NCBI RefSeq assembly: GCF_003946085.1
Contig: NZ_RHOB01000005.1
Location: forward strand, 17,716 to 57,715
DNA from: Levilactobacillus angrenensis
Lineage (GTDB): Bacteria > Bacillota > Bacilli > Lactobacillales > Lactobacillaceae
Reading direction: 5' to 3'
Length of the DNA: 40,000 nt
Both the position numbers and the translations under genes were made by a program. Under the pieces are notes generated by a model that saw only the letters and a program-made list of their open reading frames with translations, was not told the origin of the DNA and made no database searches. The number at the start of each line of letters is the position of its first letter. The first letter of the stretch is position 1. Shown piece after piece: positions 4,604 through 6,847 of this stretch.

Positions 4604-5029
4604 TCACTCCTTAATTTTTTCGATATTGATTTTAACTGAACCGGACATACCGATATAAAAGTTCTGAGCATCGACTCTATCTGTACTGCTGTACGACACC
4701 GCGCTAATTGTCATACCATCATCGCTAATCATTAATCTAACACCACCTATAGTGGCACCATAATTTTGCATACAGTTTCCAACGAAGTTATTTGCCCCAG
4801 CAAAATTAACAAACCTAAAGCCATCAGGTGGATTAATTTTGAAAGACATCGTTGACGTGGAAACCATACCAAAAATTTTCATTTGAGTATTATCCACTTG
4901 AGACAACAGCAATCCACTACTAATTGTTCCGACAAAATTTGTATACGGTTTCCACTGATTTATCCGGTCATAAAGCACCTGGTTACCCAGGGTAATCTTG
5001 GATACATCATCGCTAATTGCTAATCCCAT
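4604..5029 (-). CDS. Tail-fibre-region paralogue 4 (141 aa)
   Basis: N-terminal DVSKITLGNQVLY and central INPPDGFRF motifs are shared with the other three paralogues. GGAGG lies 9 nt upstream. Confidence 0.75.
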   Translation of the reverse strand: MGLAISDDVSKITLGNQVLYDRINQWKPYTNFVGTISSGLLLSQVDNTQMKIFGMVSTSTMSFKINPPDGFRFVNFAGANNFVGNCMQNYGATIGGVRLMISDDGMTISAVSYSSTDRVDAQNFYIGMSGSVKINIEKIKE

Positions 5030-5077
5030 AAGTGTTCGCCTCCAATCAAAGACGAACCCTTATGAGTTAGTGAAATT

Positions 5078-5131
5078 CTATAGGGTTGCCCCCCCCCGAA
5101 CATTTACGGTGCTTGTGAATTTATCGTACAT
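5078..5131 (-). CDS. Mini-ORF A (17 codons, MYDKFTSTVNVRGGATL) containing the G9 tract
   Basis: AAGGAGGA lies 7 nt upstream of the ATG, inside the end of the upstream gene. It is homologous in layout to mini-ORFs B and C. Confidence 0.5.
   Translation of the reverse strand: MYDKFTSTVNVRGGATL
5089..5097 (-). repeat. Homopolymer: C9 on the plus strand = G9 on the coding strand
   Basis: Counted directly: ...gttg ccccccccc gaac... Confidence 0.95.
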
Positions 5132-5133
5132 GG

Positions 5134-5628
5134 TTAGTCCTCCTTGATTACATTGAATTGGATATCTGCAGAAAATAATACATTAGCAGCTCCAGGCCCG
5201 CCATATGAGTTGTTGAGCACCCATGTTTGGCTACCTTGATTTGCCGCATAGTTATTTGAGATTTGCCCATAACACTTATTTCCATCGTATTTCATCGGAA
5301 CAGCATGTCCTCCTCCCGCTCCTGAATCACCAATAGTAAAAGTTGCTGGGTTATTAGACGCGAAGCTATACCCATTTGGCAACTCTAATGCCAGTCGCCA
5401 TTTTTTAATGCCCTCACCAGATGGGATTGTAACCGCGCGGATGCCTTTAAAAGCTGCAATACCGGTTTGAGGGTCAAATTTCATAATTTCCATACCGACA
5501 AAATCCGTTCCCTTTGTCCCGTTGTCTGGAAGCTCAATCCACGTAGTATTCGGGTCTTGCCGCTCCCACAGAGTCTCACTGCCAAGGGTGATTTTCGCTA
5601 CATCGCTAGACATGCTAACCTCACTCAT
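5134..5628 (-). CDS. Tail-fibre-region paralogue 3 (164 aa from MSEVSMSSDVAKITLG)
   Basis: Motifs DVAKITLGSETLW and LELPNGYSF. The start at 5628 gives the same N-terminal length as its paralogues, with GGTGGTGA as the SD. The ATG at 5613 is an alternative start. Confidence 0.75.
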   Translation of the reverse strand: MSEVSMSSDVAKITLGSETLWERQDPNTTWIELPDNGTKGTDFVGMEIMKFDPQTGIAAFKGIRAVTIPSGEGIKKWRLALELPNGYSFASNNPATFTIGDSGAGGGHAVPMKYDGNKCYGQISNNYAANQGSQTWVLNNSYGGPGAANVLFSADIQFNVIKED

Positions 5629-5661
5629 GGCAGTCACCACCAGTCTGAGTAGAACCAGCGG

Positions 5662-5718
5662 TTAGAGGGTGGTTTCTACCCCCCCCCCCGACATTTTAAG
5701 CGTGTTAACTAGTTTCAT
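5662..5718 (-). CDS. Mini-ORF B (18 codons, MKLVNTLKMSGGGVETTL) containing the G11 tract
   Basis: AAAGGA lies 8 nt upstream. An in-frame ATG at 5727 has no spacer to the SD. Confidence 0.45.
   Translation of the reverse strand: MKLVNTLKMSGGGVETTL
5679..5689 (-). repeat. Homopolymer: C11 on the plus strand = G11 on the coding strand
   Basis: Counted directly: ...ttcta ccccccccccc gaca... Confidence 0.95.
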
Positions 5719-5732
5719 TTGTCTCATCCTTT

Positions 5733-6233
5733 CTAGTCCGGTATTACAGACGTTGTAGTCCAGCAATGATATCCTGTGTAGTTATCATCTAAATCGCTCA
5801 TAAAAATAATTATTCTTCCTGCAGGGTAAACTGAAGCTGAGTTCATTTTCCAATTGAATTTTGCACTAATTGAATCACCTGACATGGTGAAAGACAAATC
5901 ACCATAGTAGGATCCAGTCCCATACATAATTCCAGATGTGGCATTACTAGTTTTGCTTCCGAGTGGGAAAGTACTGTCAGTCTTGCTAAACCGATACCCA
6001 TCTGGCAGCGTTAAAAGAATCTTGTTCCATGTACCTTGACTATATGTCCATGTGATATCAGCAGCTCCAATAAAACTAGTAACGCCTGTCGATGCATCAT
6101 AGTGCATCAAAATTGGCGTGCCCGAAAAGTCTGCATTGACCATACATGGTAGCCACACATCTTCCGCATTCACAAACTCGTTTCCGGCCAGTGTCAATCG
6201 TGATATCTTGTCTCCGCCTACTGTGAGTGTCAT
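5733..6233 (-). CDS. Tail-fibre-region paralogue 2 (166 aa)
   Basis: Motifs DKISRLTLAGNEF and LTLPDGYRF. GAGGTGA lies 6 nt upstream. Confidence 0.75.
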   Translation of the reverse strand: MTLTVGGDKISRLTLAGNEFVNAEDVWLPCMVNADFSGTPILMHYDASTGVTSFIGAADITWTYSQGTWNKILLTLPDGYRFSKTDSTFPLGSKTSNATSGIMYGTGSYYGDLSFTMSGDSISAKFNWKMNSASVYPAGRIIIFMSDLDDNYTGYHCWTTTSVIPD

Positions 6234-6266
6234 AAGGCATCACCTCGGTGGTTCAGACGAGTATTT

Positions 6267-6308
6267 CTACCCCCCCCCCATGATAAATGGGGTTAATTTA
6301 TTAGTCAT
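6267..6308 (-). CDS. Mini-ORF C (13 codons, MTNKLTPFIMGGG) containing the G10 tract
   Basis: TAGGAGGT lies 6 nt upstream of the ATG and overlaps the stop of the upstream paralogue. A TAG follows the G run directly. Confidence 0.5.
   Translation of the reverse strand: MTNKLTPFIMGGG
6270..6279 (-). repeat. Homopolymer: C10 on the plus strand = G10 on the coding strand
   Basis: Counted directly: ...ttcta cccccccccc atga... Confidence 0.95.
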
Positions 6309-6319
6309 GGTATTACCTC

Positions 6320-6847
6320 CTATACTTTCTCAAGTCCGATGATTGCAGGACCACCAAAATTATCGTCTGTAGCAGAGACATGGTTGATGTCATTACCGTT
6401 AAAGTTAATCAACACACGTATTTTTCCATAAAGATTACTGTTATGTTGAGCTCGCACAACTGTGACATTTCCATCTGCAAAAGAAATATATCCATAGCCA
6501 CGCTGAACGGCTTGATTGGATCCTGATGTTGTATACATACTCGTATAAACTAGAATTGTCGGTCCATAAGATGGTCCAACTTGCCAATTATGATCTAGAA
6601 AAGTATACCCGTTGGGTGGATTTAGCAACTTAAAAGACGGCGTGTACAAGCTATCCGATGTTGCTTGGGTCAAATAGCCTAAGCTTCCAACTAATCCTGC
6701 TGTTCCATCGCCGTAATCCTTAAAAAACACATTGCCGCTCACCCCATCAGGTAGCTTCAGCGGAATCCATCCATCAGAATTCTGCCAGACAGTGTCGCCG
6801 CCCAACGTAATCTTGCTGACGCTATTTGGTACTTCCAATTCAGCCAT
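6320..6847 (-). CDS. Tail-fibre-region paralogue 1 (175 aa from MAELEV)
   Basis: Motifs SVSKITLGGDTVW and LLNPPNGYTF. The start overlaps the fibre stop (TAATG), with GGGGAGGTG upstream. Confidence 0.8.
   Translation of the reverse strand: MAELEVPNSVSKITLGGDTVWQNSDGWIPLKLPDGVSGNVFFKDYGDGTAGLVGSLGYLTQATSDSLYTPSFKLLNPPNGYTFLDHNWQVGPSYGPTILVYTSMYTTSGSNQAVQRGYGYISFADGNVTVVRAQHNSNLYGKIRVLINFNGNDINHVSATDDNFGGPAIIGLEKV

Follow-up and report, generated by a model that had tools for sequence, protein, structure and literature searches.

Poly-G runs in leader ORFs as a candidate switch of paralogous tail genes in a myovirus-like Levilactobacillus prophage

Tail module and its three leader elements

The window, by which we mean the whole analysed stretch of 40,000 nucleotides of Levilactobacillus angrenensis DNA, contains the tail module of a myovirus-like prophage, and all of the genes discussed here lie on its minus strand. 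The tape measure gene is followed by the genes for baseplate J, a Mu gp48-like protein and a tail fibre of 308 aa, then by four paralogous small genes (P1 to P4), a coiled-coil gene, XkdX and the lysis genes. The tail-fibre gene appears to encode only the proximal part of the fibre, and its stop codon overlaps the start codon of P1 as TAATG. One leader ORF, with its own strong Shine-Dalgarno (SD) sequence, lies in front of each of P2, P3 and P4. Each of these elements has the same layout, in which a short leader ORF with a G run about ten codons in lies between two members of the P family. The coordinates are collected in Table 1. For leader B, ATG 5718 is the more likely start, in preference to ATG 5727.

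Table 1. Features of the tail module, in the order of transcription (window coordinates)
Feature	Position	Strand	Remarks
Tail-fibre gene, 308 aa	6847..7773	-	Residues 1-177 match PHROG tail-fibre families; downstream of the baseplate J and Mu gp48-like genes
P1, first of four paralogous small all-beta proteins	6320..6847	-	Leaderless; predicted to be coupled directly to the fibre gene
Leader ORF C	6267..6308	-	Strong SD AGGAGG 7 nt before ATG 6308; encodes MTNKLTPFIMGGG then stop (6269-6267)
Poly-G tract C, 10 G	6270..6279	-	Stop TAG directly after the run (+3 nt); putative coupling frame at 9 or 12 G
Weak CCACC/GGTG hairpin ahead of P2	6241-6251	-	Predicted SD accessibility 0.58
P2, 166 aa	5733..6233	-	Start ATG 6233, SD GAGGT; ATGA with the long-leader-frame stop
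Leader ORF B	5662..5727	-	Encodes MKLVNTLKMSGGGVETTL then stop (5664-5662)
Poly-G tract B, 11 G	5679..5689	-	Stop 17 nt past the run; putative coupling frame at 9 or 12 G
Hairpin predicted to sequester the P3 ribosome-binding site, CCGCUGGU ... ACUGGUGG	5637..5661	-	MFE folds
P3, 164 aa from ATG 5628	5134..5628	-	Long-leader-frame stop 8 nt inside P3
Leader ORF A, start ATG 5131	5078..5131	-	Strong SD; encodes MYDKFTSTVNVRGGATL then stop TAG 5080-5078
Poly-G tract A, 9 G	5089..5097	-	Stop 11 nt past the run; putative coupling frame at 8 or 11 G
Hairpin predicted to sequester the P4 ribosome-binding site	5034..5057	-	GGAGG in the 3' arm
P4, 141 aa, last paralogue	4604..5029	-	Followed by the coiled-coil gene, XkdX and the lysis genes

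The leader sequences themselves are as an earlier, sequence-only reading of this DNA had given them. Leader B, with its 11 G, reads TCG GGG GGG GGG GTA GAA ACC ACC CTC TAA and ends in GGGVETTL. Leader C, with 10 G, reads ATG GGG GGG GGG TAG, and with 11 G it would end in GGGVEILV followed by a stop codon, while leader A, with 9 G, ends in GGATL. That reading had also taken B and C for the same element, and they are indeed copies of one kind, with a shared layout in which the G run is followed by TAGAAA.

Long G runs are rare in this genome. In its 2.8 Mb, only three G/C runs of at least 9 nt occur, and these are tracts A, B and C; five runs reach at least 8 nt, the remaining two being G8 runs at unrelated intergenic sites. 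The spacing of successive tracts is exactly 591 nt start-to-start in both intervals (window 5089, 5680 and 6264-6279). Since the tracts are the sole G/C runs of at least 9 nt in the genome, occupy equivalent positions and share a conserved TAGAA motif, the presence of three runs in leaders A, B and C is beyond chance. In contingency loci, repeats of about 7 or more units are regarded as slippage-prone, and the G9, G11 and G10 runs found here all lie in that range. The 591-nt spacing holds despite the little sequence that P2 and P3 share.

The P proteins have no Pfam or PHROG name. P2 found only 10 homologues in a search of 5.8 billion proteins, the P-family profile matched 197 clusters in 1.84 billion representatives, and exact-protein look-ups of the P2 and P4 proteins of the window returned nothing on record. 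The motif LTLPxGYxF and the N-terminal half are common to the members, whose C-terminal halves differ. Other prophages have the P domain, minus its first ~25 residues, as the C-terminal part of longer proteins (263-718 aa), with no G run at these loci, and one longer protein with a C-terminal P-like domain carries collagen repeats. The AlphaFold model of P2 is all-beta (pLDDT 80.6). Compared with the PDB and BFVD, it gave no significant match, and the weak top matches were mostly tail-fibre or receptor-binding proteins. Because of the lack of a significant structural match, the receptor-binding role that we propose for the P proteins rests on their context and on the domain fusion in relatives, which together suggest that they are detachable distal fibre domains, serving as alternative tips.

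Three loci of the same genus (L085, L086 and L087, in genomes G023, G017 and G031) carry a P-like domain at the C-terminus of fibre proteins of 430-530 aa, in a single copy and without a leader or a G run. Judged by their sequences, these fused fibre proteins look like the unswitched form of the module. In addition, positions of about 55-120 of the P profile match 10-17 times within giant proteins of 1,300-6,400 aa (P0028, P0030, P0035, P0073 and P0096). The two of these that were scanned against Pfam, P0073 and P0096, contain divergent InlB B-repeat domains, and this repeat is perhaps a relative of the PxGYxF core of P.

Related prophages and variation of run length

When 39 genomes of the genus were searched at the DNA level, matches came from five other species, mainly to the leader regions, with 77-85% identity. 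Within the module, the DNA of the leader regions is conserved best between species, and no DNA-level alignment is obtained for the P genes. From the genus genomes and from IMG/VR, Logan and NCBI contigs, we assembled a set of 24 distinct elements, which represent at least nine Levilactobacillus prophage lineages. Throughout these lineages, homologous leaders precede paralogous small genes downstream of the tail-fibre gene, with runs of 7-14 G. The leader ORFs are 13-35 codons long and carry AGGAGG or AAGGA 6-10 nt before the ATG. The gene order is also conserved, in that the fibre gene is followed by a leaderless P1, one to three leader-plus-P cassettes, XkdX and the lysis genes. The number of cassettes varies from 2 to 4 among the lineages, and the cassette classes are shuffled between them. 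Searches of 50,697 phage records yielded no DNA or protein match to the locus, and a pattern scan of metagenomes gave two matches, both unrelated.

The elements fall into three sequence types. Types B and C share the G run followed by TAGAA, while in type A elements the G run is followed by a C-rich stretch and TTTCACTAACT. TAGAA also follows the tract in the homologous elements of other species. The resemblance of the GGGVE tails of B and C, for which coincidence had been allowed, is therefore not coincidental, as it is the translation of this conserved DNA motif.

In another genus of the family (G089, L083:2017-2022), a related leader lies between two P-like genes and carries T7, then G6, then CTAGAAACCC; its sequence suggests that it may be a shorter or decayed switch outside Levilactobacillus. 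In a genome of the same genus (G020, L088:1968-1977), a G10 leader, now in the long frame, lies ahead of a 104-aa ORF that does not belong to the P family, which suggests that the switch module can be combined with other genes.

Run length differs between copies of the same prophage. One L. brevis prophage is represented by four independent assemblies with 1 substitution in about 2.5 kb, and its three runs measure 8/10/11/14, 8/9/9/11 and 7/7/7/11 in these assemblies. Five further lineages differ between assemblies by 7 vs 8 (two runs), 10 vs 12, 11 vs 12, 7/8/9 and 9 vs 12. In all six lineages, the assemblies compared encode an identical copy of one cassette protein, and in one lineage the comparison was made by sequence alignment. 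Run length is thus polymorphic between assemblies of the same prophage, and the tracts are hypermutable. The slippage that the sequence-only reading had suspected is borne out to this extent, as near-identical prophages do differ in run length.

The individual counts have to be read with some caution. Contigs often break at the runs, and several end inside one (L066, L037, L106 and L107 are among those affected), while in the scaffold of the L. brevis type strain ATCC 14869 (AZCP01000001; L014/L075) a gap directly follows G9. These breaks are consistent with length heterogeneity or with poor coverage at the tracts. Given that contigs often end inside runs, any single run count is perhaps off by one, and some of the differences between assemblies could be homopolymer errors; differences of 3-6 G are beyond base-calling noise.

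Reading frames and hairpins behind the runs

The frames that leave the run have three outcomes. The first early frame stops 3-21 nt past the run, in types B and C at a TAG or TAA directly after it, and the second early frame stops 14-25 nt past the run. The third frame is open until the start codon of the P gene, where it mostly closes in ATGA, and otherwise in TAATG, TGATG or within 10 nt. In all 24 distinct elements, the stop of this long frame ends between 2 nt upstream and 10 nt downstream of the first base of the start codon. The three-outcome geometry is likewise present in 24/24 elements, despite spacers of 36-59 nt with indels, and in ~8% of composition-matched shuffles; as the elements are homologous, this count measures retention under divergence and not 24 independent trials. 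No run length joins a leader to its P gene. Fusion of leader and P protein was therefore rejected as a candidate, given that all three frames end before or just inside the P gene.

In this genome, leaders A, B and C are all in non-coupling, early-stop frames. Among the 36 run states observed over all elements, 15 are in the long frame, 12 lead to the first stop and 9 to the second. A switch left to drift in a silent prophage would be expected to show such a roughly even occupancy. Within lineages, the lengths 8/11/14 and 9/12 preserve the long frame, which, in small numbers, hints at selection on the frame.

These observations do not agree with the idea, put forward from the sequence alone, that A and B retain a conserved peptide frame from which C has fallen by a single G. 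The GGGVE frame is one of the two early-stop frames, and the relatives are found in all three frames in the proportions given above. The frame that is conserved in its geometry is the third, which ends on the next start codon, and A, B and C are all outside it. The likeness between the GGATL end of A and the TTL end of B derives from a shared C-rich hairpin arm and stop codon, and not from a peptide. A conserved leader peptide was rejected on the same grounds, in that lineages differ in the frame in which they read the same conserved leader DNA, and the tails of the short frames differ as well.

The spacers between run and P gene contain hairpins. One is formed between the final Gs of the run and a C-run further downstream, which in type C gives GGGGUA-GAAA-UACCCC. 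The SD hairpin of type A has a consensus helix of 9 bp with compensatory changes at five pairs; 89.9% of its cells are paired, as compared to about 60% with the register slid, and its covariation score was reached by 0/500 shuffles. In the type C hairpin, the pairs vary on one side only. The mean unpaired probability of the SD is 0.14 over the element set, as compared to 0.26 when the upstream spacer is shuffled, and is below this control in 21/24 elements. In the window, the corresponding values are 0.05 vs 0.23 for the SD of P3 and 0.08 vs 0.38 for that of P4. The SD in front of P2 is different. Its hairpin is weak at element C and in the nearest relative, where the SD is predicted to be unpaired at 0.58-0.60. 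The SD is thus predicted to be base-paired in free mRNA in types A and B, with element C weak at 0.58. Because the hairpin of element C is weak and the ribosome-binding site looks accessible, P2 may be translated whatever the frame of leader C, and the gating of P2 is the weakest part of the switch model.

The elements matched nothing in Rfam. On the minus strand, no terminator-like site was found at the elements, and the hairpins have no U tail. An intrinsic terminator was accordingly rejected as a candidate, as the T run is absent and no element was called as a terminator. A hairpin with the same G run, GAAA loop and TACCCC arm, followed by a T run, occurs in unrelated IMG/VR phages (L020-L047, pattern G7-TAGAAATAC). 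In this IMG/VR group, the motif G7-TAGAAATACCCC with its T run has 7 to 9 G between contigs, and the hairpin looks, from its sequence, like an intrinsic terminator.

A candidate tail-gene switch, its alternatives and known systems

Taken together, the data are best accommodated by a model in which leaders A, B and C are three paralogous poly-G switches, each of which gates the next P gene; we put the probability of this reading at roughly 60%. Slipped-strand mispairing would alter the length of the run, which would then fix the reading frame of the leader. In two of the three frames, translation would end 3-25 nt past the run. The third frame would take ribosomes through the hairpin that hides the ribosome-binding site of the next gene and would end at its start codon, and translation of the P gene would thereby be coupled on. 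That a change of run length switches P gene expression is what we infer from the frame geometry. As leaders A, B and C are in early-stop frames and P1 is leaderless and apparently coupled to the fibre gene, only P1 would be expected at full level at present. A single slip in each leader would suffice to reach the coupling frame, with P2 turned on when C went to 9 G, P3 when B went to 12 G and P4 when A went to 8 G. Run length would thus probably set at random which fibre tips are made, and the one-G difference between B and C is probably one snapshot of the switch rather than a broken peptide. If each of the three independent runs turned one tip on or off through translational coupling within a prophage population, up to eight virion types could result from one genome. 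Such a combinatorial, heritable and reversible host-range lottery has, in our estimate, an even chance of being real.

The sequence-only reading had also considered that the difference between B and C is a homopolymer error of sequencing or assembly, such that C truly has 11 G (or another number) and the two leaders are biologically alike in the strain. Runs of 10-11 G are error-prone, and contigs of other assemblies do end in the runs or precede a scaffold gap. However, gaps as wide as 7 vs 11 and 8 vs 14 between otherwise identical prophages exceed what base-calling error could produce, and the 7-14 G found across species represent real length change. With 11 G, leader C would still be in an early-stop frame, so that the reading of the element does not depend on its exact count. 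Sequencing error, improbable even as the source of the one-G difference, may touch a single count and cannot explain the family. The conserved leaders might instead be linkers, at which P cassettes are swapped between phages by recombination, with G runs that are unstable and of no regulatory role. Conservation is far higher in the leader DNA than in the P genes on either side, two to four cassettes occur with their classes shuffled between lineages, the same DNA is in different frames depending on the lineage, and one lineage has a leader before a non-P gene, all of which would fit such linkers. What they leave unexplained is the strong SD and ATG of every leader, the two early stops with a third frame ending on the start codon in 24/24 elements across indels, and the covarying SD hairpin. 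As the full account, recombination linkers therefore have little chance of being right, although the leaders could serve as linkers and as switches at once.

Both transcription and translation are known to slip at long homopolymers, and the run might act through programmed slippage, in which the polymerase or the ribosome slips on it in every cell and a fixed small fraction of coupling-frame products sets the ratio of the P proteins. The hairpin formed by the last Gs and the downstream C-run directly after the tract would suit such a device, and the frame geometry is equally compatible with it. On the other hand, a fixed-ratio device would be expected to keep one length, whereas the run length varies in the DNA of near-identical prophages and all three frames are occupied. 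It is on the strength of this DNA-level polymorphism that we argue for the existence of heritable switching. The two are not mutually exclusive, and slippage could add leakiness to the switch or could even be its main mode, but programmed slippage in place of a heritable switch seems unlikely to us. The run might also be a variable promoter spacer that tunes transcription, with a -35-like TTAAC(C/A) 11-13 nt before it and a -10-like TAGAAA right after it. Types B and C have retained both hexamer-like motifs, and a scan placed one weak promoter-like site over leader C. With n Gs in the run, the spacer would however measure 11+n nt in type C and 13+n nt in type B; over the observed n of 7-14 this gives 18-25 nt, and only n=7 in type C would fit sigma-70. 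Furthermore, the promoter-like sites in the region numbered 7, as compared to 8.0 in shuffles, which is no excess, the motifs are absent from type A, and the SD and ATG of the leaders and the geometry of their stops are left unexplained. We regard a promoter spacer as very improbable. No resolvase/invertase or RVT_1 was found on the prophage contig, no long inverted repeats flank the cassettes, and the inverted repeats found were all 22 nt or shorter; an invertible segment or a diversity-generating retroelement (DGR) was rejected on account of the missing invertase and reverse transcriptase genes and of the missing long inverted repeats.

The switch that we favour would draw on elements of several known systems. 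In classical translational coupling, overlapping stop and start codons (ATGA, TAATG) are combined with a hairpin that sequesters the SD. The present elements resemble this arrangement, as the stop of the long leader frame lies at the P start or no more than 10 nt from it and the ribosome-binding site of P is usually predicted to be paired. Unlike the fixed classical arrangement, the outcome here would hang on a mutable upstream run, as a stochastic switch. In Streptococcus gallolyticus, the pil1 locus has GCAGA repeats in a leader-peptide gene and an attenuation-like mechanism, and the account of it given by Danne et al. (2014, PMC3894217) describes how a stem-loop downstream is melted when translation of the leader extends further, whereby the genes that follow are turned on. 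In both cases, a simple repeat in a leader ORF would set how far ribosomes travel, with leader translation in the prophage predicted from the SD and ATG. In contrast to pil1 as described in that account, with its pentanucleotide repeat, transcription terminator and pili, the prophage elements have a homopolymer, a hairpin predicted to hold a ribosome-binding site, and phage tail genes; they have no terminator-like site, and their long frame ends on a start codon.

In phage Mu, the host range is switched by the invertible G segment of the tail fibre (van de Putte et al. 1980, as listed in PMC12823448). As in the Mu G segment and in DGRs, putative alternative distal fibre genes adjoin the fibre gene of a temperate myovirus, likely with a variable host range as the consequence. 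Unlike in Mu inversion or in the mutagenic retrohoming of DGRs, what varies here is a homopolymer. Homopolymers are not mentioned in a survey of L. brevis phages and prophages (PMC6805780). We infer that, in the temperate phage of a Gram-positive host, a homopolymer within a leader ORF is brought together with stop-start coupling and an SD hairpin. If this is correct, it would constitute a cheap third route to variation of phage host range, besides DNA inversion and retroelement mutagenesis. It would matter beyond the phages themselves, as the hosts are bacteria of beer spoilage and food fermentation, and the host range of their prophages bears on phage control and on the robustness of starter cultures. 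For annotation, the leaders and their run lengths would be informative, and blind correction of homopolymer 'errors' at such sites should be avoided.

In Campylobacter phages, the G runs are reportedly located within the genes for receptor binding, which they truncate. The work of Sorensen et al. (2021, Cell Rep 35:109214, as listed in PMC12823448) on Campylobacter Fletchervirus phages deals with hypermutable polyG tracts in receptor-binding protein genes. As in these phages, several G runs are found in the putative host-recognition module of the Levilactobacillus prophages, and changes in their length would mix the tail proteins within a phage population. Unlike in Fletchervirus, the Levilactobacillus runs are in separate leader ORFs, so that no length fuses or breaks a P gene, and the host is a Gram-positive lactic acid bacterium with a temperate phage. 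The gate proposed here would thus differ from the in-gene polyG of the Campylobacter phages in that the genes would stay intact and be kept silent through the coupling gate, in place of being broken. One lineage among the relatives is an exception of the Fletchervirus kind, with its run inside a P1-like gene. In this related prophage, known from Logan contigs, the run is G7 in one contig (L068:2262-2268) and G8 in another (L069:1239-1246), and the P1-like product has 146 aa with 7 G and is truncated to 107 aa with 8 G. By its sequence, this difference would be in-gene phase variation of the Campylobacter-phage kind within the same module.
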